From Syntrophomonadales bacterium (GTDB taxonomy: Bacteria; Bacillota; Syntrophomonadia; Syntrophomonadales; DTU052), in the NCBI GenBank assembly GCA_050951725.1, contig JBMNJO010000001.1:924967-988966 (forward strand): 64,000 nt of DNA. Direction: 5' to 3'. The notes beneath the pieces are model-generated. The model was not told the DNA's origin. It saw nothing but the letters and a program-made list of their open reading frames with translations, and did no database searches. Made by a program: the position numbers and the translations under genes. Each line of letters starts with the position of its first letter. Position 1 is the first letter of the stretch. Of the stretch, positions 6,300 through 53,807 are shown piece after piece.

Positions 6300-6890
6300 A
6301 TAAGTAGAATAAAGCGGAGGTTACCCCCTGAGTAAACGCTGTGACTTAGGTCCAGCAGGTTTTCCCGTTGAACATCCTGCTTGTCGCCAAGCAGGCGGTT
6401 TCCCTTTACGCTCAACCCGTGTTGTCGCCGTACACGAGGCTGGATTACCACTTAGTGCACACTTTAATCCCCAGAGGGTCGTGCCTGGCACACAGTCTAG
6501 GGGATTTCCCCGACAACCTCTACCAATTCTTAGCCTCTTTTGCAGCAGGGGTTTCAGAAGAGGGAAAACGGAACCGTGGCCATCGGTCTCCGTACCTCTA
6601 TAACTCATCCGCCCATACCACTCAAGGCAGGCTACACTGCACCCAGCTTCCTACCAGATGCAGGTTTTCCCGAAGGATTGCTCCTTCGAGCCTCCACGGG
6701 TGGGGGGTCAGTTCCCGCATGCCGTTGCAGGCTGCCCCGGCACCCTTAACTCCCAGCACCAACCCCCAACTGGGCGTTGAAAGCTGACACCAGAATCTTC
6801 ATCGATGTGCCCTATAACGGATTTTTAGGCCCGTCTTCAGAATTGGTGAGATTGACTAGAATACTGCAACCTCCACCCATAATTCTAATT
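6300..6890 (-). ncRNA. ole: OLE (ornate, large, extremophilic) RNA; ends approximate to about 40 nt
   Basis: About 590 nt with only short, mutually overlapping ORFs on both strands. The segment is GC-rich with dense local complementarity. It lies between a promoter and oapA, followed by dxs-tlyA-nadK-argR-recN, which is the known ole synteny. Confidence 0.75.
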
Positions 6891-11855: not shown

Positions 11856-12947
11856 TTAGTCTGCTCTTACCCTGCATAACAGTATGTTTTTCTCATTTTC
11901 ATAACTGTAATCGCAGCTCTCACTGCGGCTCCGGATAAGCACCTGTCCGAGTTGATCATCCTGGCTCCCGGTTTCAAGCGGATTTAATGGAATCCCGGCG
12001 CTCTCAACGACCAACTCCAGATTACCGCTCTTCTCGGAGTAAGCCAGACTGACTGTAATATCTGAGAAATCCTGCTGCAGGACCAGGATCTCTTCGACCA
12101 GCAAGAGTACATTCCCGCAGACCCGCCTGGATAGGAGGTGTTTTTCACAAAAAGCCTGGATTTCGCCGTTCATGCCATAAAGATCGTAGTCCTCACTGGT
12201 AATACGGCAGCGAAGAGTGCGCACCCGGTTGATGAAGGCTCGGGTTTTTTCTTTCTGTGGGTTTTCAAACAGCTCTTCGGGGGTACCCTCCTCATAGATA
12301 ATACCTTCATCCATATAAAACACGCGGGTAGCCAGATTCTGGGCAAACTCCATCTCGTGAGTGACAATAACCATGGTCATCCCTTCTTTGGCCAGGCGTC
12401 GGATAACCGCCAGCACCTCACTGACCATCGTCGGGTCCAGAGCTGAGGTGGGCTCATCAAAAAGCATGACCTCCGGCTCCATCGCCAGGCAGCGGGCAAT
12501 GGCTACCCTCTGCTTCTGTCCGCCGGAGAGCTCATCCGGAAAAGCATTGGCCTTTTCGGCCAACCCGACCATTTTCAGCAGTTCCATGGCTTTGATGCGC
12601 GCATCGGCCCGGCTCCGTCCCAGGAGCTTTATAGGCCCGATGGTCAGATTATCCATAACAGAAAGGTGAGCATACAGGTTGAACGACTGAAAAACCATGC
12701 CCATCTTCTGGCGTATCCTTGCCACATTGGTATCCTTGTCCAGCAAGGGAACCCCGTCAATGTATATTCTGCCGCCACTCGGTTTCTCCAGCAGGTTGAG
12801 GCAGCGCAAGAGAGTACTTTTCCCGGTGCCTGAAGGTCCAATAATCGCAACAATCTCACCTTTATGGATCACGCTGTTCACGTCCTTCAGCACTTCCAGA
12901 TCACCAAACCTCTTACTCAGGTGTTCAATCTTAATCATTGCTGACAC
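11856..12947 (-). CDS. amino-acid ABC transporter ATP-binding protein with a ~120-aa C-terminal extension
   Basis: Walker [10 protein letters not shown], signature LSGGQKQR, Walker [11 protein letters not shown] and H-loop VTHEM lie in residues 1-240. There are about 120 extra residues after the NBD. Confidence 0.85.
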
Positions 12948-15918
12948 CTCCTACCGGACGGTTCCTTTTCGGGTCAGTTTTTATGGCCAGATAATCCAAT
13001 ACCAGGCCCAGTAACCACGCCATGAGGAAGTAGAGTATGGCCACCATTATCAGGGGGAAGAACGCATCAAAGGTGCGGCTGCGGATAATATCACTGGCCT
13101 TAGTCAGGTCCTGTACTGCTATATAACCAACCACCGAGGTCATCTTCACCATAGAGATGAACTCACCCTTGTAAACAGGAAGCACCTGCCGTATGGCCTG
13201 CGGCATTATTATATACAGGAAGGTTTGCAGTTCGGTGAAGCCACCGGCAATGCCGGCTTCTCTCTGTCCCTTATCCACACTCTCGATGGCGGCGCGGAAC
13301 ATCTCGGAGACATAGGCCCCAAAGTTCATGGCAAAGGCAATCACTGCGGCAATAACCGGTTCAATGTTTACCGAGGCAAACACCACATAAAAGACTATCA
13401 TCAGAAGCACCAGCACCGGAATTCCCCGCAGGACGGAGATATAAACCCGGGCAAACCCCTGCAGGAACTTGTTCTTCGCCATCCGCATGTAGCAGATCAG
13501 GGCCCCCAAGAGGGTACCAAAAATTACCGCCAGGACAGATATCAGCGCGGTAACCTTCAAGCCATCTATTATGAGCTGATAGCGATCCTCCACAATAATA
13601 TTATTGTAAAAACTGTTGCCAACCCGTTGAAGAATAGATTCAGGTTTACCTGCTTCATTCTCGCCGGCATCCTGGCCGGCAATATTGTCCTTATGGGCAA
13701 TCACCGCAGTCTTGAACTCCAGATATTTGTCAGAGAAGTCTATGGTCTGAGCCCTCTCCTCTGTTATTGCGATACCATCGGCTATCATATCAACCTTGCC
13801 CGAGGCCAGGGCTGCGATCAAGGACCCGAACTCCATAGTCATTATCTCCAGAGGATACCCTTCATAGGCTGCAAACCGCTGGATTATCTCAATGTCAAAG
13901 CCGACATACTCATTGTTCATGACCGCCACATATGGAAGGTCACCTACCGCCACCCCCGCAACCAGTTTCTCACCGGTTCTCGGGTTATCAAACTTCGGCA
14001 TGACAGCCTTCTCTGGATCATTCTCCATCCAGCGCTCGTATACCTCATCATAGGTGCCATCGGCCCGTATCTCTTTTAGAAAGTTATTAAATTTCTCCCG
14101 TAACTCAGGGTTATTCTTGCTGAATCCAATTCCCAGGTCCTTGGTGAACACATCATCGGTTACGATCCCGATATCAGGATTGTTTTTTAGCAGTACCTTG
14201 GCTGAGGTATAATCGAGCATGGCCGCGTCGATCTTGTTGCTCTTAAGGGCCAGAATCATGTCTGAAGTACCTTCAAAGCGGTATATTTTGGCTTCAGGAT
14301 ACCTCTCGGCGATAAAGGCATCGAATATCGTCCCAACATATACCCCTACCCGTTTATCGGCTATATCATCAAGCTCTGACATCTTGTTGGAGTTACCCTG
14401 AGCTATGTTCTTTTTCAGAGTTAAGAAAGAAGCCCCTAAATCGTAATATGGATCGGAAAAAGCTATCTCTTTTTGGCGCTCCTCTGTCATCATCAAGCTG
14501 CTGGAGATCATATCAATCTTATTGGTGGACACTGCGGCGATTAAGCTGCCGAATTCCATATCCTGAAACACAAGTTCCTTGCCCAGATAGGCGGCAAACC
14601 TTTGGTCAAGTTCAGCATCGAACCCGATCAATTTTTTATCCTTGACCGCCATGAAGGGAAGTCCCGAATCACTGGCTATTCCAACAATCAGTTTCCCATT
14701 GTTACCGGAGTTCTCGATTACCGGCATTTCGGTAGATCCATCGGTCATCCAGCGTTTAACCATATCATCATAGGTGCCATCAGTTTTGATTTCCTGGAGG
14801 AAACTATTAAATTGTTCACGCAGGGCCTGGTTATCCTTGTTAAATCCCATCCCAATTGGAACTGAGTAGACCACATCACCGAGCATGGCCAGATCCGGGT
14901 TTTCTCGGATTAATCTCCGCAATAATTCATGGTTTATCAAGGCCGCATCAACTTTGTCGCTTTTGAGGGCAATTAACAAATCGGTAATATTCTTGTACTG
15001 CAATAGGCTGGCGTCGGGGTAATTAGCATTGGCATAGGTATCGTGGACCGTGCCTAATAGCACCCCGATACGTTTGTCTCTTATATCATCAACGGTCCCC
15101 AACTGAGCACTGCTGCTGTCAGTTGCAGATTGGTTGTCATCCCGGACCAGAGCGGCAATTCCCCCTGCGTAATAACTCTGGGTGAACAATACCTGTTTCG
15201 CCCTCTCTTCAGTAATGGATAATCCCGCGCCAATCATATCCACCTTGCCGGACACCAGAGCCGGGATCAGGCCGCCAAAATCCATGTTTACCACTTCGAG
15301 CTGCATATCCAGTTCCTGAGCTATGTAGGCAGCTAGTTCAATGTCAAAACCTACAATCTGGTGATTACCGTCCATGAAGGCCATTGGCTCGGTAACTGCC
15401 GCAGTTCCGAATCTTAAAGTGCCATTATCCCCGATGAGTTCAATATCCGGCATCGGAGCCGGCGCACCTCTTTCGGGAAACCAGCGCGTCATCATCTCGT
15501 CATAGGTACCGTTAACCCTTAGTTCATCGATGACTCTATCCGCCGCTGTTTTTATTTCCTGATCGTCAAGTCTCACCGCGAACCCGTAGTTGTCCTCAAC
15601 CAGAACTTCTGGCAATACTGTTACCCCTTCATTTTTACCAGCGATGTTTTGGAGGACGGGTTTATCATAGGCTGCAGCGTCTGCTTTGCCCTCTTTAACT
15701 GCTATAGCACAATCCAGAACCGTATTGTAATAAGTCAACTCGGCGTCTGGAAACCTCTCCCGCACAAACTGGTCCGCAATGGTACCGGTAGGCACAGCGA
15801 AGGTCTTGCCGCCCTGAAGCATCGATAAATCCGTTATAAATCCTTTCTCTCCACCGCATCCCAGCAGCGACAGAGCAAAACAGAGTATTAGGATGATCCC
15901 AACCACTTTATTTCGCAT
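12931..15918 (-). CDS. fused lipoprotein / multi-substrate-binding-domain / amino-acid ABC permease
   Basis: Start moved to [23 protein letters not shown] (AAGGAG RBS; lipobox LLGC). There are repeated PBP type-3 modules (GFDIEL...SGKVDMI...TEERAK) followed by a His/Glu/Gln/Arg-type permease TMD at the C-terminus. Confidence 0.8.
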
Positions 15919-16163
15919 AGCAACACTCCTTATCATTTGGCTCGGAAAATCTTTATCAGAAATGCACCTAAACGGCAATAAAGCTATCCTTGTTCATTCG
16001 ACAGGCGTTTAATATTCTCCTTCGCAAATGCCATTGAATGGTAAAGATAGTTCCATGATTAACCCACAACTTCTGGTTTGCCGCATAGCCTCACTAGCAG
16101 GAACTGGATGTACAGGTTGGGGACTGATAATCATGCCGCCAGACCTGGCGCTTTATGAGCAGT

Positions 16164-16539: not shown

Positions 16540-16974
16540 TCTGATCACCCCTTTCGTTTAATCTCATCTTAATAAGATTATACGATAATTATTTGGAAGT
16601 AGCTCAAACGGCTTGAGAATAAAATACATTTCCGCCTTATAGATGGGGTTATTCCATATATTAATAGCATTGAAATGTTTACACCATATCGTCAATTCCG
16701 TCCAACTTAGTGAGAATATCTTTGGATGCAACTCTTGCACCGAATTCATTTATCTGGAAACAGGCGGGTTGAAAACGACTTGGCAAAAGAATCAGGTGAA
16801 AGAGTCTCCTTGACCCGTACCTGGAATGGTGCCAGAAAAACATTACAGACCCTTACAATCGGAAGACCTTTTGAGAGAATGGAATTCGGATATCTTCGAT
16901 GATATCGCCGTTCATCCGGTTGCCGTGTCGGGACCCTTCAGGCCCGAGGAACCAGAGGTTAATGATTTATAACA

Positions 16975-17622
16975 CTATCTTATATTCGTTACCACGCTTT
17001 CACCGTTTCTGATTTCTATATGGCAGGCAGTGGATCCGGCATCAGCCAGGTGCTGGTTGTGGGTGACCATGATCACCTGGCGGTCAAATGAATTGCACAC
17101 AGCATTCAGGAACTCCGCCACCTGACGTACATACTGTTCGGAAACGTGTTTGCCAGGTTCGTCCAGGATCAGGGGGCCGCCGAGGGGGGGACGGCTGGTT
17201 TCCAGAAGAGCTACACGCAAAGCCAGGGAAATAACATCAACAATTCCGCCTCCCCGAGAGTCACGCGGATCATTCTGTACCACCTGTTCTCCGCCATAGG
17301 TCGAGGAAACAGAAAATTCAGCCTCGGACCTCTCGGCGCGTTCCTCAAAATCAATATGAAAAACGTGGTCACTCTCAAATATCATCTTCAGGGCGTTGGT
17401 TACCAGCCGTTCCATGGTTTCCTTGGACTCACGGCGGGCATAATCGCCGGCCATGCTGAACAGCCTTGCCACCTGGCGCAGCGTTTCGACCTGGTTTTTT
17501 AGATCGGCGATCCGGGCCTCCTTCTGCTGTTTCTGGCCCTGGAGGCTGTCGCGCTGGCCTTTGCGCCGGTTGAGATCATCACGAAAACTAGCCACACTTT
17601 TTTTCAGGGCAGCGTGTTCCAA
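16975..17622 (-). CDS. Rad50/SbcC-like ATPase, C-terminal piece (signature motif, Walker B, H-loop)
   Basis: 215 aa with a TTG start 1 nt after the upstream stop. Coiled-coil N-terminus, then SRGGGIVDVISLALRVAL, LILDEPGKHV and VIMVTHNQ. Confidence 0.8.
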   Translation of the reverse strand: MEHAALKKSVASFRDDLNRRKGQRDSLQGQKQQKEARIADLKNQVETLRQVARLFSMAGDYARRESKETMERLVTNALKMIFESDHVFHIDFEERAERSEAEFSVSSTYGGEQVVQNDPRDSRGGGIVDVISLALRVALLETSRPPLGGPLILDEPGKHVSEQYVRQVAEFLNAVCNSFDRQVIMVTHNQHLADAGSTACHIEIRNGESVVTNIR

Positions 17623-17623
17623 A

Positions 17624-17890
17624 TCACCATCCCACCTTTTTCAGGTACTGCATGGGTATCAATTCCTCAATCCTTTTAATCAGGGAGTCCATTTCCATCC
17701 GAATCTCCCGGATACGGGCATCAAGTTCTTCGGGTTGGCAACCCAGGTCCTCTATACGCTGGTGGACCTGCTCCAGGTCTTTCTTCAGCACCTCGTATCG
17801 GGCCAAGGCCCGGTTCCGGTCATTGCTGGCGTCTTTTAATGCTTTCTCCAACTTCTTAATACGGGCATCGTAAGATTCTTTTTCCAACAA
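17624..17890 (-). CDS. 88-aa coiled-coil protein (middle piece of the split Rad50-like protein)
   Basis: Heptad-rich sequence (KKLEKALKDASNDRNRALARYEVLKKDLEQVHQRIEDL). TTG start after GTGGGGGTG. Confidence 0.6.
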   Translation of the reverse strand: MLEKESYDARIKKLEKALKDASNDRNRALARYEVLKKDLEQVHQRIEDLGCQPEELDARIREIRMEMDSLIKRIEELIPMQYLKKVGW

Positions 17891-18028
17891 CTACACCCCC
17901 ACTTTGGAAAGATGGTTATTATTTGTCGCCCCTTCCAAGGGGCTCTCTTCCTTTACTCCGAATTGTTTATGTTTATGATCACCTGCTGGATATTATATCC
18001 ACGAAAAACAGGTCATACATGGTTTTTT

Positions 18029-19360
18029 CTATAAGATCTCCCGGCGGATACGGGCAATGGTGTCCTGGTTTATCTCGGCGAAACAGGTGGGACATCTCCC
18101 GGCATTCTGCAGGAGGTCACCGTATTCGTCAGCAAGGGTTCGGGCCCGTAAATCGACCTTCTCCAGTTCCTGCTGGGCCTTCTTAACCCCCTCCTCAGCT
18201 TTATGCCAGTTGCCAATGATGTTCTGAAATAATCCCAGACGCGTTAAAAGCGTTAAGGAGTCCTGAATCGCTTGTTCCGCTCCGTCAAGATCTTCCAGTG
18301 ATGCAATTATGGCTGCATAATTCTTCATTTCCTCTGATTTCTGCTTTCGTTCTTTCTCCAGTCCTGCCAGTTCCTTGCGGGTGGCCTGTAACTCAAAGCC
18401 CTCCTGTCTCAGGGTCTTCATCTTATCCAGGTACTCCTCAGTCTTTTCCAGTCCCTGGGTAGAGTCGATAGTCAGGTCACAGATCTTCAGTTCTTCCAGG
18501 GTATGGTTTCGCTGTTGCTGCAGATTACGGATCTCCTCCAGTACGCGCATCAGCCTGGCTATCTCCGCCTGGTTTGTATAGGCCTCATCAAGATGATCGA
18601 GCTGCTCCAGGGCCTCCTTGATTTCTGTCATCTGCTGCCGGGTTTGTCTCAGGGTATTCCGTGCCTCTTCCAAGATCCTGACTTCCCGGTCCAGTTCCGA
18701 GAACCGCTTCAGCAACTGTTCCAGGCTTTCCAGCCGGGTCTCCTCCTCTTCCAGATTGGCATAGTTCTGAAGCTGCTGGTCCAGTAACTCGATATCACCC
18801 TCTAAACGGCTGATCTCGTGAAGTGCCTGGGAGGTATCCCTCAGAGTGTCGCGCTGGGCGGCGTCAATGATGTGCAGGTTGGCCATGCGGCCCAGGATCT
18901 TGGAACGGGTGGTACCTGACTCCTCGAGCAGGAAAGGGGCCTCCAACTGGCTGGCCAGGTTTATCTCCACCGCCCGGTCACGGTCGATGACCAGTTTGGA
19001 GATGTCCAGGGCCTTTCTTACCTCCAAGGGCACTTCCTTGTTGAACCGTTCAAAAACCAAGACCTCCTCGCCCGGGACCTCCAGGATATACCGGTTGACC
19101 CGGCTGCTCTCATCACGGATTCTCTCCACTGCCACCCCGTTGCTCAATTCCACCCGTACCTCGCACCGGGTCTCACCAACCCTGATAAAGCCGGTACCTC
19201 TAGGTTCATTATAAACCAACCAGCGCAGGGCGCGGACAATGGCAGACTTCCCCTGATCAGAGGGACCAACGATTATGTTAAGCCCCGGAGTGAACTCAAA
19301 GTCTGTTTCCCGGTGAGACTGGAAGTTCCTCAGTCGCAGTCTTTTTATGTAGGTCTTCAT
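18029..19360 (-). CDS. Rad50/SbcC-like ATPase, N-terminal piece (Walker A, coiled coil, zinc hook)
   Basis: 443 aa with Walker A GPSDQGKS, a Q-loop region QLEAPFLL, a long coiled coil, and a C-terminal hook GRCPTCFAEI. The ATGA start overlaps the mre11-like stop. Confidence 0.8.
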   Translation of the reverse strand: MKTYIKRLRLRNFQSHRETDFEFTPGLNIIVGPSDQGKSAIVRALRWLVYNEPRGTGFIRVGETRCEVRVELSNGVAVERIRDESSRVNRYILEVPGEEVLVFERFNKEVPLEVRKALDISKLVIDRDRAVEINLASQLEAPFLLEESGTTRSKILGRMANLHIIDAAQRDTLRDTSQALHEISRLEGDIELLDQQLQNYANLEEEETRLESLEQLLKRFSELDREVRILEEARNTLRQTRQQMTEIKEALEQLDHLDEAYTNQAEIARLMRVLEEIRNLQQQRNHTLEELKICDLTIDSTQGLEKTEEYLDKMKTLRQEGFELQATRKELAGLEKERKQKSEEMKNYAAIIASLEDLDGAEQAIQDSLTLLTRLGLFQNIIGNWHKAEEGVKKAQQELEKVDLRARTLADEYGDLLQNAGRCPTCFAEINQDTIARIRREIL

Positions 19361-20346
19361 CGCAAATCTCCCCGTCCCAGAAGTGATTCTTCCGCCTCAG
19401 CGATTCGTCTCAAGGCCTCCAGGCGGACCTCCTCACTAAGGTTCTCCGCCTTGGCCAGTTCGCTTATTATCTGACCGACATTCCAACGTCTCAGTTCTGT
19501 GGCTTCCTTTACCTCCCGGGTGAAACTCTCCATCGCCAGAACCCGGGTCTCCATCTCCTCCACCCGGGTGCGGTCCAGGACCTCCTCTCCTGGAGGTGCT
19601 GACTGCAGGGGGATCAAGCGGCAGTTCACCGCCCCACCTGTAAGGTCAATCAGTGCCACCTTCACTTTCCGCTCAATCTCCCGGTGATGGTTGCTGAGGC
19701 GGACCAAGGCCCCCGGGTTCACATAGTGACGGTCTCCCCGCTGAAGGGCGCCATAACCCAGGTGATAGTGCCCGGAAAGCACCAGGTCGGCACCAGAGTT
19801 CCCCAGATCATCGATCAGGGTATAATCACCCGGGAACTGCTGTCTATCAAGCAGCATCCCGTGAATCAGGTGTATGGTAAGATCGCTCTCTGTATCCTTC
19901 TCCACGCAGTAGTCCAGATGGCGGGGACGCCGGTCAATATCCAGATGATACGGCTGCCCAATGAGGCAGGCCCTGATCCCGCCAGCCTCCAGCCTCACAC
20001 TCTCAGAAGGTCCTAACAAGCGGAAAAATCCCATCCGAGCTGTGAAACCCAGCACGGTACGCGGCAGCGTCTGCAGATTGCCGCCAAAAATGTCGTGGTT
20101 TCCAGCAACCCCATAGAGAGGGACCCTGAGCTCCCGTATTATCTCCAGAAAATCAGCGGCCACAGACAGTGCCGGATTCGGAGTATCAAAAAAGTCTCCC
20201 CCATGCAGCACATAGTCAACCTGGTAGTCATTGGCCAGCCTGACTACTTCCGCCAGCTTTTCTTTCAAGGCAGACAGCAGATTGTCCTTCCGGTTGACCG
20301 GTGAATTCCCCCGGAAATGTGAATCCGTAAAAAACAAAATCCTCAT
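19357..20346 (-). CDS. Mre11/SbcD-like metallophosphoesterase nuclease
   Basis: About 329 aa. Phosphoesterase motifs DSH, GGDFFD, GNHD and GHYH, plus a helical C-terminus. Confidence 0.8.
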   Translation of the reverse strand: MRILFFTDSHFRGNSPVNRKDNLLSALKEKLAEVVRLANDYQVDYVLHGGDFFDTPNPALSVAADFLEIIRELRVPLYGVAGNHDIFGGNLQTLPRTVLGFTARMGFFRLLGPSESVRLEAGGIRACLIGQPYHLDIDRRPRHLDYCVEKDTESDLTIHLIHGMLLDRQQFPGDYTLIDDLGNSGADLVLSGHYHLGYGALQRGDRHYVNPGALVRLSNHHREIERKVKVALIDLTGGAVNCRLIPLQSAPPGEEVLDRTRVEEMETRVLAMESFTREVKEATELRRWNVGQIISELAKAENLSEEVRLEALRRIAEAEESLLGRGDLR

Positions 20347-20609
20347 CAAACTACACCCCTATACATATGGGACACGGGGACAGGTGCCCTGTCCCGCTTT
20401 TGCCCTACTAATTCGGGGACACCCTAATGAATCTCCATTTGGGGGACATCATACTAAATTTTCTATTACTTGAGGAAAGAGAATTTGGTATGGCGTCCCC
20501 CAAATAGACACCTCTATCAAGTAGAACGTAAACCTGGCTCCCCACTCCAGACAAACCGTCCTCCGTTATTGATTCTCACTACAACGCACGGCTTCCTCCC
20601 TCTTTACAT

Positions 20610-22463
20610 CTAATTCCGTGTAGGAAGGCGGTAGACCGTTACAAAGACGTTGTCTTCTTTTACCAGTTCCCCCTTCTGCACCATCTGCCCCAGCAGGCTG
20701 TTGATCTCCGCCCGGCTCATGGGCGTACCCCGCCGCTCCAGTTCCTGCAGGACATCGTTAATGTAGGTTTCATTGAGCGGCAGGTATTTCGTAAGTACCG
20801 ACCGGAACTCGCTGGCCCGGGAATCGGCCATCACTTCAAGCTCATCAAAGGGGTTGTCCTGGTGAGGACTGCGGGTTTTGGCGGCCCTGATTCTGACTGC
20901 CACGGTTCGCCCCACGATCGGTGATGAAATAAAGCCGTAACCGGAGGTAAGGTAGGGCAGACGCCGGATTTCTTCGCGACCCAGGTCAGTTTCTTCACTT
21001 ATAACCGACAGGTCCATGGATCTGACGGTGCGGAAGATAATCTTGGTATTGAGCTGGGCATTTATCGTATCATCTAGCAGGGCCGGCCGCTGACTGGCCA
21101 GAACCAGGAACACTCCGTATTTTCTGCCTTCCTGAGCGATTTCCCGGAACTCACGCAGTGAGGGAGAGGAATGATCACCTTTGGGCGCAAAGTTGTGAGC
21201 CTCATCAGTTACCACCAGGAATGGAGGAAAACTTGCGGCCGACTGCCCCTTCTGCAGGGCATCCCGGTATTCCCGCCGTTTACCATAGAGGTTTCGCAAT
21301 ACATATGAGGCATACACCCGCAACATCCTGATCGAGCCCCGGATCACGGTAACCTGCTGGTTTCGCAGTCCTTCCTCTATCCGGGTAATCCCGGCCTCGT
21401 GAAAGATACCTTCCCGTTTCAGGCTGTAGAGTCTCCAGCGGACTGCCCTCAGGCTGGCAGGTTGGCCCACCTGGTTCTGCAGGACCTTAAGCCGTTTCCA
21501 TTCCCGCTCCCGCTCCGGTCCACTCCCCCGGTTGAAGAACTCCTGCCGGTAGTCAGCCTCGTTATTCTCCAGCAGTCCGATCAGGTTGTCCAACCGTTCG
21601 GCAAAGGTGGTTAAACTGTCCTTTTTCAGGAGTACCGCCCGGGCGGCTGATTCCATGGCTTCACTGAGCGGGCTGACCGCTCCCAGCAGGTTGCACAGAT
21701 CACCCTCAGTAAGCATATCGAACCGTACCCCGATGTCCTGTCCCACAGTCAGGATCTGAAAACAGGAATCAAAAGACTCCTTAAAACCAGCAGGCAGGTC
21801 AGGCAGAAGCGGCTCAGAAAAACTCATCTCGTAGTGCGGGTCAAATACGATAACCGGCAGTCTCTTCTTCATGAATTCCTCAATCAGCACCCGGACCCCA
21901 AATGACTTGCCGGAACCGGACCCGCCAAAGATCCCGATGTGGGGATAGTCCTGCATGCTGCGGTAATCCAGCAGGAAAGGTACCCCCTGCTGCTCCACCA
22001 TCTTTCCCTCCTGAAACAGAGGGGCCAGGTGGCGTAAATAATCCGGTAGCGTCGGGTCCAGGGTCTCCGTACCCAGTATGACCCCCAGGGCCATAGACCG
22101 TTCCGGTTCCGCCTGCAGCAGAAGGTCCGCCACCTCCGTAAAATCAGGGACCCGGGCGCAAGACCCGGTTTTGACAGGATAGAAGAGCTCGCTGATGACC
22201 CTGATTTTACCCAGGTAAACTGTATCCCGCTCCAGTTCGTATCCAACCGCCTGCAATGCCGACACGATCTCGTGCCCCATCAGATACGGGGAACCCTCAT
22301 CAACCAGCGGCACCAGGGGATTAAGGGAGTAGGTCTCCACCACCTCGCCTACCGCGGTTTCCGGAGTATGCCCCTCCATGACCAGGAGCTCATTCAGCCG
22401 GAAAGGCCGGTCCTTACTGGCCACCCAGACATCTCGTTCATTGGTCCTCCCCACGACCTGCAC
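20610..22463 (-). CDS. HerA-like (FtsK/HerA superfamily, DUF87) ATPase
   Basis: 617 aa with Walker A GGSGSGKS, Walker B VVTDEAHNF, the LASQRP motif, and a winged-helix-like C-terminus. Confidence 0.8.
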   Translation of the reverse strand: MQVVGRTNERDVWVASKDRPFRLNELLVMEGHTPETAVGEVVETYSLNPLVPLVDEGSPYLMGHEIVSALQAVGYELERDTVYLGKIRVISELFYPVKTGSCARVPDFTEVADLLLQAEPERSMALGVILGTETLDPTLPDYLRHLAPLFQEGKMVEQQGVPFLLDYRSMQDYPHIGIFGGSGSGKSFGVRVLIEEFMKKRLPVIVFDPHYEMSFSEPLLPDLPAGFKESFDSCFQILTVGQDIGVRFDMLTEGDLCNLLGAVSPLSEAMESAARAVLLKKDSLTTFAERLDNLIGLLENNEADYRQEFFNRGSGPEREREWKRLKVLQNQVGQPASLRAVRWRLYSLKREGIFHEAGITRIEEGLRNQQVTVIRGSIRMLRVYASYVLRNLYGKRREYRDALQKGQSAASFPPFLVVTDEAHNFAPKGDHSSPSLREFREIAQEGRKYGVFLVLASQRPALLDDTINAQLNTKIIFRTVRSMDLSVISEETDLGREEIRRLPYLTSGYGFISSPIVGRTVAVRIRAAKTRSPHQDNPFDELEVMADSRASEFRSVLTKYLPLNETYINDVLQELERRGTPMSRAEINSLLGQMVQKGELVKEDNVFVTVYRLPTRN

Positions 22464-22481: not shown

Positions 22482-23462
22482 CTACAGCCCGCGTCGCTCG
22501 CGGTTGGCAGTAAAAAACCTCTCCCTCACCAGAGGATCCAGACCGTTCATTATCACCGTTTCCATGGATTTACGGGTCAGCCTGACCTCCCGGTCGACCA
22601 GATCAAGCCACGCTGGAATGCCCCTACCCTGGGAAGGGGTTAACGAATAGATTAGATTCATAGCTGGCAGCAGGAACTCCCCCTGCTCCGCCAGGAAGTC
22701 ACAGGCAACTGCCTGGGGTGTGCTGCCCATACGGGCAAACACTGTGGTATAATTCCGCTTGATCGCGCTCTCCCCACCCAGAGCCACCATTTCACCCACC
22801 TCAAGGAGCCCGAACAGGAATTCACGATCATATATACGCAGACCCGGCACCTCCAGCCCGGTCAGTGAACAGAGCTCAGCAGTGGCGACCTCTTCGATCA
22901 CCCCGACCAGTATACAGTTGTGAGTTCGAGCCTCACTGACCAGTAACTCCCATTCGGGAAAGCGGTCAAACAACAAAAAGCCCCCATCAAGCATGATCAT
23001 GAAGGGCTTAAATGTTTGCAGGGCGTTCAAGGCCAGTCTTATTTCCATGTGAGCCATCTTCTCGCCCATCAGGCGGCGGTATGCCTCACTATCCTCCAGC
23101 CGGTTCTTGACGGCGAACTCACTTACTTCCGTGCTCAGTTCAGGATCAAAAGGGCAATAAATCTCGGAACCACTCAACTGGTTAGGTTCACCCTTGATAC
23201 TTCCCTTGGCCAAGGCCTGAACCAGGCAGACGGTATAAGGATAAAGGCCTCCGTAATCAGCCCGTGAGCCATCGACGGCTATCAAGGTCCGTCCCCCGGT
23301 CAACTCTACAATTTCCCAACGGTTAAGCCGCTGCAGAAAGCCGAAATCTGCAAGCATACGCAGTCTCTGGCGCCGGGTTTCCAGGGAAGGACAGAGGGAA
23401 TCACGATGGAGGAAATATTCGTTCAGGCGTCGGGTGGCGGCGAGAACCTCGTGGTTTAGCAT
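22482..23462 (-). CDS. NurA-like nuclease
   Basis: About 326 aa with acidic motifs IAVDGS, IMLDGGF and GVIEEV. It lies directly upstream of herA with an 18-nt gap. Confidence 0.7.
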   Translation of the reverse strand: MLNHEVLAATRRLNEYFLHRDSLCPSLETRRQRLRMLADFGFLQRLNRWEIVELTGGRTLIAVDGSRADYGGLYPYTVCLVQALAKGSIKGEPNQLSGSEIYCPFDPELSTEVSEFAVKNRLEDSEAYRRLMGEKMAHMEIRLALNALQTFKPFMIMLDGGFLLFDRFPEWELLVSEARTHNCILVGVIEEVATAELCSLTGLEVPGLRIYDREFLFGLLEVGEMVALGGESAIKRNYTTVFARMGSTPQAVACDFLAEQGEFLLPAMNLIYSLTPSQGRGIPAWLDLVDREVRLTRKSMETVIMNGLDPLVRERFFTANRERRGL

Positions 23463-23584
23463 TTTCAACCTCGCCCGGATTTTTCCTTATTATATATTAA
23501 CCTCCGACCCCGTTCAATTACCTGCTAAACACCCAGGGACGTTAAGTCATCATGAGATGAAGCTGTTCAGCTTGCAGGGAAACT

Positions 23585-23810
23585 TAAGCATGATTCCCCG
23601 CGAAAACCCAGGAGGCGGTTGGCGTAGCATGGTAGCAACGGTGAAGGCTCACGGCGAAAGGGGGCGAGCCCCATGGACGGGGCGAGAGGGCCACTGAACA
23701 CGGACATGAATTGGCCCGGTGCCCCATTCGTCGTGAGACAAGCAGTTGGTGTTGCCCATGTGAAGTCTGGCGACGAATATTTATGCATCCAAACTCCGAA
23801 TCGCAACTTT
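23585..23810 (-). repeat. structured intergenic repeat, copy E2 (strand tentative)
   Basis: Shares the GTTTGGATGCATAAATATTCGTCGCCAGACTTC terminus and internal blocks with the other copies. It is bracketed by a perfect 13-nt direct repeat, TTGCAGGGAAACT, at 23572-23584 and 23811-23823. Confidence 0.6.
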
Positions 23811-23910
23811 TTGCAGGGAAACTATTAACTCGTTTGCAAACGCAGGAGCCAAGCTCATTCGATTGCTGGACGAGCCGGATGAACGGATGGTGTCCAAAAA
23901 GGAAGGACGG

Positions 23911-45732: not shown

Positions 45733-45790
45733 GTTTGGATGCATAGATATTCGTCGCCTGACTTCGCATGATGGAACACCATCCAAAAGG
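45733..45790 (+). repeat. structured intergenic repeat, truncated copy E3 (one terminal module only)
   Basis: GTTTGGATGCATAGATATTCGTCGCCTGACTTCGCATGATGGAACACC matches most of the terminal ~50 nt of copy E2 (by-eye alignment). The similarity then stops. Confidence 0.5.
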
Positions 45791-53732: not shown

Positions 53733-53807
53733 TGGTGCGCCCGGCAGGAATCGAACCTGCGCGCCTGGCTCCGGAGGCCAGCGCTCTATCCTCTGAGCTA
53801 CGGGCGC
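53733..53807 (-). tRNA. tRNA-Arg (anticodon CCG), CCA encoded
   Basis: Minus-strand GCGCCCGTAGCTCAGAGGATAGAGCGCTGGCCTCCGGAGCCAGGCGCGCAGGTTCGATTCCTGCCGGGCGCACCA. Cloverleaf with a 7-bp acceptor stem, anticodon loop CTCCGGA, and a GGTTCGATTCC T-arm. Confidence 0.95.

Follow-up and report, generated by a model that had tools for sequence, protein, structure and literature searches.

A probable Rad50/SbcC-type ATPase in three coupled cistrons downstream of an Mre11-like gene in Bacillota

A set of three adjacent genes is described here from a 64,000-nucleotide (nt) stretch of the genome of a Syntrophomonadales bacterium (GenBank assembly GCA_050951725.1, contig JBMNJO010000001.1, positions 924,967 to 988,966). 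This whole stretch is called the window, and positions are counted from its first letter. The three genes very probably encode a functional Rad50/SbcC-type ATP-binding cassette (ABC) ATPase that is naturally divided into three translationally coupled cistrons downstream of an Mre11-like gene and is assembled in trans. All three lie on the minus strand. The product of the first, p1 (18029-19360, 443 amino acids (aa)), has a Rad50-like N-lobe, a helical arm and a CPTC motif. It is followed by p2 (17624-17890, 87-88 aa), a helix-loop-helix protein with a conserved loop LG(C/V)xPEEL, and by p3 (16975-17622, 215 aa), which has an N-terminal helix and a Rad50-like C-lobe. The three add up to ~745 aa in total and carry the database names "AAA family ATPase", "hypothetical protein" and "ATP-binding protein". 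A first-pass annotation, made from the letters of the window, had suggested a split ATPase rather than random decay. The relatives, the substitution ratios and the identical independent assemblies described below support the split, and we infer the assembly in trans.

The three-ORF layout is conserved across Bacillota

A species scan with one genome per species found 472 genomes that encode a relative of p3. The best 80 loci were examined by searching the window proteins against stop-to-stop open reading frames (ORFs). In 75 distinct loci p1, p2 and p3 are separate ORFs in that order, with sizes of 430-630 aa, 78-97 aa and 211-228 aa, respectively, and none of the best 80 loci has a p3 ORF long enough to cover p2. 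The split layout is found in Clostridia (Syntrophomonadaceae, Thermacetogeniaceae, Desulfotomaculum, Symbiobacteriaceae and Tissierellia) and in Bacilli (Tumebacillus, Thermoactinomycetaceae, Alkalihalophilus and Halalkalibacterium halodurans), while a few metagenome-assembled genomes with other taxon labels appear to be mis-binned. Relatives with p1 identities of 81%, 75%, 72% and 54% have the Mre11-like gene followed by a triplet of 443-447, 87 and 215-225 aa. The first-pass annotation had named a continuous ORF in close relatives as the sign of a pseudogene; all relatives, from 81% to ~30% identity, keep three separate ORFs. The best 120 homologues of p1 are all 264-534 aa long and span the region from the N-lobe to the CxxC; their hosts include Syntrophomonadaceae, Acetivibrio thermocellus, Tepidanaerobacter and Thermosediminibacter. 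The best 120 homologues of p3 are all 192-256 aa, and the homologues of p2 that were found are all 87 aa. An exhaustive profile search with p3 gave 426 representatives at E<=1e-30; among the top 150, almost every protein has 200-260 aa. In 78 of 82 loci the gene that immediately precedes p1 is an Mre11 gene, and HerA and NurA are linked in 35 of the 82. The ratio of nonsynonymous to synonymous substitution rates (dN/dS; Nei-Gojobori, window against four relatives) is 0.12-0.17 for p1, 0.03-0.06 for p2 and 0.04-0.07 for p3. Judged by these ratios, each of the three ORFs is under purifying selection. The layout recurs far more widely than chance would allow, and its distribution marks it as ancient and as conserved within Bacillota.

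The junctions between the ORFs are variable. Over the 75 loci, p2 ends in TAA, TAG or TGA, p3 follows in any of the three relative frames (37/14/24) at a spacing of -14 to +59 nt, and the p3 start is ATG in 52. The p1-p2 junction is as variable as the p2-p3 junction. Three Symbiobacteriaceae loci have a Nudix hydrolase gene (PF00293) between p1 and p2 (L036, 6231-6689; L056; L081, 6270-6716), and ~2.1 kb separate p2 from p3 in L055 (between 4861 and 6956) and in L059. Because the stops, frames and spacings vary and because genes or ~2.1 kb intervene between the cistrons, the simplest reading of these sequences is that p1, p2 and p3 are three polypeptides made from coupled cistrons. In the window, the stop codon of the Mre11-like gene overlaps the start of p1 as ATGA, and p3 begins at a TTG 1 nt past the p2 stop. 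A Shine-Dalgarno (SD)-like sequence lies 5' of each of the three starts, in agreement with the ribosome-binding sequences that the first-pass annotation had read there. The p2 ORF has 88 aa from its first TTG and 87 aa from the second (17887). The second TTG is most likely the start, since 87 aa is the length of every homologue and of the gene calls on independent assemblies.

Taken alone, the window invites other explanations. The 138-nt stop-filled gap between p1 and p2 and the 1-nt offset between p2 and p3 resemble the disruptions of a once-continuous rad50/sbcC gene that is decaying by frameshifts and insertion. Such a pseudogene is scarcely credible, given that the three ORFs are shared by 75 distinct loci over deep divergence, that dN/dS is 0.03-0.17 in every piece and that SD sequences and start codons are conserved. 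No long-coil single-ORF relative is among the best 120-150 matches of any search. False stops and a false gap introduced by sequencing or assembly are a general possibility in metagenome-derived sequence, with nothing beyond this in their favour. Four independent Joint Genome Institute (JGI) metagenome assemblies from different samples have 0-1 mismatch over the 2,386 nt from p1 to p3, and the gap is identical in all. An artefact can therefore be practically dismissed, and the frames and stops, for which the first-pass annotation had asked for read support, are genuine. Programmed recoding, by +1 frameshift or stop read-through, could in principle fuse p2 to p3 or p1 to p2. The p2 stop of the window is a UGA with the SD-like AAGGTGGGA ahead of it, and p3 begins 1 nt later in the +1 frame, an arrangement superficially like the prfB frameshift site; p1 and p2 share a frame. 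However, the P-site codon UGG cannot re-pair in +1, two further in-frame stops lie in the p1-p2 spacer, the p2-p3 junction varies in stop, frame and spacing as given above, and whole genes lie between the cistrons in some lineages. Recoding is thus very unlikely.

An SMC-like (structural maintenance of chromosomes) anti-phage defence system, either Lamassu-like or HerA-associated, has more to be said for it than the above and is still improbable. The PADLOC profiles of LmuB align to p1 (E 1e-14) and to p3 (E 5e-9), HerA defence profiles align to the HerA-like gene of the cluster and there are weak NCBIfam matches to anti-phage HerA. All of these matches are far under family level, and archaeal Rad50 models score higher. 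The partners, an Mre11-type phosphoesterase and NurA-HerA, are those of the archaeal end-resection set. In Syntrophomonadaceae the synteny between zip/ydcZ and folE/surE/fusA is stable at 54-81% identity, unlike that of mobile defence islands, and therefore a housekeeping role is favoured over a defence island.

The ABC head, the p1 arm and p2

The motifs of an ABC head are divided between p1 and p3. The Walker A motif GPSDQGKS is at p1 aa 32-39 (19244-19267, minus strand, as are all motifs below), and G32, D35, G37, K38 and the Q-loop residue Q138 are invariant in 87 homologues. In the p3 homologue alignment the SRGGG variant of the signature motif (aa 122-126, 17245-17259) has invariant R123 and G124-126. 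RGGG is present in 163 of 267 members of the p3 family, and most of the remaining ones have xGGG. The Walker B/D-loop LILDEP (p3 aa 151-156, 17155-17172) has invariant L153, D154, E155 and P156, and the H-loop VTHNQ (p3 aa 186-190, 17053-17067) has invariant H188. These motifs, which the first-pass annotation had placed correctly in a p1 of 443 aa and a p3 of 215 aa starting at the TTG, assign the N-lobe of one ABC head to p1 and its C-lobe to p3. A sequence search of the PDB leads to the same division: p1 and p3 have their top matches in entries such as 1F2T and 1II8, where the Rad50 catalytic domain consists of an N-fragment and a C-fragment as two chains (A and B), and p3 aligns to the C-fragments of Pyrococcus furiosus Rad50 (phmmer against PDB). 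The best NCBIfam models for p1 and p3 are those of archaeal Rad50; positions 3-119 of Rad50_Sulf align to p1 and positions 666-868 of its 872 align to p3. The AlphaFold2 (AF2) model of p1 has a mean predicted local distance difference test score (pLDDT) of 84.7, and Foldseek matches it best to Rad50 N-half heads, with the heads of RecF and SMC proteins next.

The searches also gave a few relatives in which the p1/p3 head is a single chain and the coil is absent; such relatives are rare. In P0391 (403 aa) and P0351 (368 aa) a short helical hairpin joins the N-lobe to the C-lobe, P0354 (693 aa) has an Mre11-like domain fused ahead of the joined head, and P0396 is a further example. The first three belong with the window to the family of p3-type C-lobes (E about 1e-43 to 1e-46) and have identical N-lobe motifs, but they lack the long arm and the CxxC and their lobes are covalently joined. 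In these proteins the helix that corresponds to the first helix of the p1 arm, helix a, runs directly into the p3-type N-helix. P0391 (L087, 4001-5212) comes after an Mre11-like gene, has no p2 gene nearby and has a signature region that has degenerated to RNRA. Because the coil-less relatives join both lobes, the p1 N-lobe and the p3 C-lobe can be recognised as two halves of one head. Because they have neither arm nor CxxC, and P0391 has no p2, p2 is probably tied to the arm and hook apparatus.

Several observations weigh against the assignment to a Rad50/SbcC-type ATPase. The signature is RGGG instead of the canonical Ser-Gly-Gly-Glu/Gln (SGGE/Q), and head engagement may therefore differ. 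No curated NCBIfam Rad50/SbcC model reaches its cut-off; Rad50_Sulf scores 72 against 1000 bits and sbcc_Staph scores 26 bits against 920. The Pfam Rad50_zn_hook model (PF04423) has no match to p1 at E<=0.01. Finally, A. thermocellus (L006, 4012-6703) has an Mre11-p1-p2 cluster without a p3 gene within 5 kb. Here p1 has 483 aa and is annotated as "Rad50 zinc hook protein", p2 has 83 aa and a MiaB-like gene comes next. In this organism either p3 is unlinked or the head is completed differently.

The helical region of p1 (aa 164-420) contains an arm built from 47-residue modules (aa 199-420, 18101-18766). In 185 p1 homologues, the distance from D166, an invariant Asp at the arm start, to the first Cys of the CxxC is 156+47n(+7). 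The values are 156/157, 203, 250 or 257 (257 in the window), 293-298 or 304, 344 and 438. The BLOSUM autocorrelation of the arm has peaks at offsets 47, 94 and 141 and also at 54, 101 and 148, and in the consensus sequences of the length classes a T/S-x-x-L-x-x-A-E boundary recurs every 47 residues. The helix breaks predicted by AF2, at aa 199-202, 256, 301-306 and 356-357 in the window and at aa 197-199, 252-253, 299-300, 346-347 and 392-394 in the n=3 p1 of A. thermocellus, coincide with the module boundaries. Helix b (aa 203-255) and helix e (aa 358-420) bracket all length variation of p1, and the lengths of p2 and p3 are constant. From these sequence regularities, the p1 arm is made of three basal helices (a, b and e) and 0-6 extra modules that differ by lineage, with two extra modules in the window. 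The first-pass annotation had noted that the returning coil is much shorter than the outgoing one. This asymmetry is therefore explained by an arm of variable repeat number that has no one-to-one counterpart in the other pieces, and what the window has is probably such an arm and not a truncated return strand. That two copies of p2 fill the coil deficit was considered and rejected, because the p1 classes differ by 47 aa and p2 is constant.

The arm is followed by CPTC, a zinc-hook-like CxxC (p1 aa 423-426, 18083-18094), in which C423, P424 and C426 are invariant in the 87 homologues. AF2 places a beta-bridged turn at aa 421-431. The chain extends 17 residues beyond CPTC, which corrects an earlier count of 19. 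The second cistron had been described as 88 aa of pure coiled coil. The 88-aa ORF exists; the protein is probably 87 aa and is a conserved helix-loop-helix protein that is more constrained than the p1 arm and not a plain coil filler. Sequence identities are 0.34 for helix a, 0.40 for the hook and tail, 0.39 for p2 and 0.28 for the N-terminal helix of p3 (p3N), against 0.16-0.19 for the arm.

Two topologies of the arm fit the data about equally. The canonical one, which we rate just under an even prospect, puts the CxxC at the far tip, where zinc would dimerise two complexes. The p1 tail (~17 aa), p2 (~87 aa) and the p3 N-helix (~55 aa) would then form a return strand of ~157 aa against the basal stem (helices a, b and e; 156 aa), and the extra modules would form a self-paired branch opposite the p2 loop LGxxPEEL. 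The hook-like context of the CxxC, the match between the return length and the n=0 class (L081) and the connection from helix a to p3N in the coil-less relatives speak for it. In the fold-back topology, a somewhat weaker prospect, p1 contains a complete out-and-back arm in which helices b and e lie against each other and the tip is where modules are added. The CxxC would then be at the neck, directly over the head and beside helix a, in a bundle with p2 and the p3 N-helix, and p2 would be a new accessory subunit and not a piece of the return strand. AF2 gives a balanced p1 hairpin in two size classes, with pLDDT 83-93 for helices b and e; the chain reverses at aa 301-306 for n=2, and for n=3 it does so halfway through the odd module (aa 308-324). 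The insertion point of the modules, precisely between b and e, is the expected hairpin tip, and the conserved segments (helix a, hook and tail, p2 and p3N) would group at the neck; an LmuB profile also covers p1 1-410 and then p3. However, AF2 has a tendency to fold coils back when given a single chain, the CxxC context is like that of the apical Rad50 hook, the return pieces (17+87+~55 aa) match the n=0 class in the length of its basal stem (156 aa) and helix a is joined straight to a p3-type N-helix in the coil-less relatives. A covariation scan of p1 helices a/b against e/tail (163 sequences) has its best antiparallel register at x+y=82, near the fold-back value of 86, with z of only 3.0, and the band-summed signal is not significant. 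The hydrophobic seam is ~0.3 wide in every helix and does not discriminate between the topologies.

In the proposed complex, the p1 N-lobe and the p3 C-lobe would form a single nucleotide-binding head by non-covalent association, ATP would be sandwiched between two of these heads and an Mre11-like dimer would dock on them. ATP-driven head engagement would control the Mre11-type nuclease, as in Mre11-Rad50/SbcCD, and p2 would be a small helical subunit that the coiled-coil apparatus requires. The complex would recognise DNA ends and nick or trim them, and HerA-NurA would then resect. The complex should act in DNA-end processing with Mre11 and HerA-NurA, because both homology and gene neighbourhood point to this role. 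It is also conceivable, though we hold it only tentatively, that this is not a cut-up Rad50 and is instead a distinct Mre11-associated SMC-like machine, with an adjustable repeat arm that has a free tip, a CxxC at the neck and p2 as a new third subunit, obligatory and bundled with the tail after the CxxC and with the p3 N-helix. Dimerisation through zinc would in that case serve to gate a small chamber, of a size for DNA, on the head and would not tether distant ends.

Gene cluster, spacers and neighbouring features

The gene order on the minus strand is nurA-herA-mre11-p1-p2-p3. The first gene encodes a NurA-like nuclease of 326 aa (22482-23462; Pfam PF09376, 51 bits against a cut-off of 21), and its orthologue in locus L001 is named NurA. 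The second encodes a HerA-like hexameric ATPase/helicase of 617 aa (20610-22463; Pfam PF01935, HerA central domain, E 8e-19). The PF01935 match to the HerA (DUF87) ATPase and the PF09376 match to the adjoining NurA-domain nuclease both exceed the Pfam cut-offs, while NCBIfam HerA models score far under theirs. The third encodes an Mre11/SbcD-like metallophosphoesterase of 330 aa (19357-20349; Pfam Metallophos, E 4e-15), which also has weak NCBIfam mre11/sbcD matches; the ATG at 20346 is its probable start. The herA-mre11 spacer (20350-20609) is 260 nt long in the window and ~36 nt in L001. Within these 260 nt is a 31-nt inverted repeat with arms at 20434-20464 and 20478-20508 that are 84% complementary; it may act as a regulatory hairpin or be a further insertion.

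The p1-p2 spacer of the window (17891-18028, minus strand) is 138 nt long, or 141 nt if p2 starts at 17887. It has stops in all three frames, as had been reported, and its GC content is 0.41 against 0.49-0.54 in the ORFs. The first-pass annotation had counted this gap as part of the split and had pointed to a TATAAT-like box and a hairpin in it. Both sequences are present (GGATATAATATCC and GCCCCTTCCAAGGGGC). A promoter scan found no sigma-70-like promoter on the coding strand of the spacer and no -35 partner for the "TATAAT box", this "TATAAT" palindrome is deleted in the closest relative, and no U-run follows the hairpin on the coding strand. An RNA element was considered and rejected: there is no Rfam match at E<=1, and the fold is no better than that of shuffled sequences (z -0.77). 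The p1-p2 distance is -40 to +30 nt in most relatives, and longer spacers of 108-245 nt are found only in a Syntrophothermus-like subclade that includes the window. In the aligned spacers of relatives the SD and the start codon alone are conserved. From these comparisons, the gap is an expanded, lineage-specific and fast-evolving intergenic spacer that lies outside the design of the system.

The hairpin in this spacer agrees in 18 of 21 nt with the core hairpin of a ~255-nt repeated element upstream of nurA. It may be a remnant of an insertion of that element, and an origin of the spacer from a miniature inverted-repeat transposable element (MITE) is a lead, although the link is weak: BLAST shows no similarity beyond the hairpin. 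The GC-rich ~255-nt insertion itself is at 23571-23825 (plus strand) and is flanked by the direct repeat TTGCAGGGAAACT. Partial copies are found at 2783-2923 and 45733-45781, and the core hairpin is GAGCCCCATGGACGGGGCGAG. The element looks repeated or mobile, because L002 lacks it at the corresponding site and the window has these partial copies of it. Rfam gives no match for it, and a guess that a cobalamin riboswitch lies at 23500-23800 was not supported.

Other features of the window were recorded alongside. A 48-aa ORF on the plus strand (16826-16972) converges on the p3 stop and is called as a gene in the independent assemblies (L088-L091). In its position L001 and L003 have opposite-strand ORFs of 83-93 aa. 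Farther along, a 1,015-aa ORF (12931-15978, minus strand) fuses several SBP_bac_3 solute-binding domains to an ABC permease domain and has an ATPase gene next to it; its orthologue in L001 has 994 aa and an identical Pfam layout. A full-length OLE (ornate large extremophilic) RNA is at 6301-6888 on the minus strand (Rfam RF01071, 484.6 bits, model positions 1-616), which fits an anaerobic Bacillota host. A tRNA gene is at 53736-53807 on the minus strand (Rfam RF00005, 68 bits).

Comparison with known systems

Rad50 and SMC-like ATPases are usually treated as single chains whose own coiled coil links the two halves of the head. A widespread natural family in which the halves and a small helical subunit are separate proteins would imply that this covalent loop is dispensable, and it bears on models in which ATP-driven movement of the head is passed along the arms. 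The split halves also offer an experimental system, since they could be labelled, mutated and titrated separately, and members of the family occur in cultivable hosts such as H. halodurans, Tumebacillus, Thermoactinomyces and A. thermocellus. The 0-6 extra modules with constant partners amount to a natural experiment on arm length and function. Annotation pipelines, in turn, may overlook a complete Mre11-Rad50 system in these genomes or mark it as broken. Full-text literature searches found no description of a naturally split Rad50/SbcC.

The closest point of reference is Rad50-Mre11 and its counterpart SbcC-SbcD. Shared with these are Walker A, the Q-loop, Walker B and the D-loop, the H-loop and an N-terminal NFxSH motif, as well as a long helical arm between the lobes, a CPxC that is invariant here and a translationally coupled Mre11-type phosphoesterase alongside. 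The window differs in having three cistrons instead of one, so that the lobes and the coiled coil are not in one polypeptide, and in its extra 87-aa subunit, its arm of 47-residue repeats and its RGGG signature.

The gene neighbourhood is comparable to the herA-mre11-rad50-nurA operon of thermophilic archaea, in which NurA-HerA is the long-range resection module (PMC2288612; PMC4351679; PMC7752040). The same four functions are clustered there and here. The window is unlike the archaeal operon in its host (Bacillota), in its order (nurA-herA-mre11-rad50) and in its split Rad50, and HerA-NurA is linked to the triplet family in only 35 of the 82 loci. The Lamassu protein LmuB is likewise a short-armed SMC-like ABC ATPase, with weak profile alignment over p1 and p3, but it is a single chain, has LmuA and LmuC effector partners and no Mre11, and its genomic behaviour is different.

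An ATP-binding head formed from two polypeptides has a precedent in the recombinant two-chain Rad50 head (1F2T/1F2U, 1II8, 1US8 and 3QKR). That construct is an engineered truncation without coil and hook, whereas the split in the window is natural and the arm is retained. Set against these systems, the conserved three-gene split, the 87-aa subunit, the modular 47-residue arm and the RGGG signature are its distinguishing features, and together they characterise what appears to be a variant of Rad50/SbcC.

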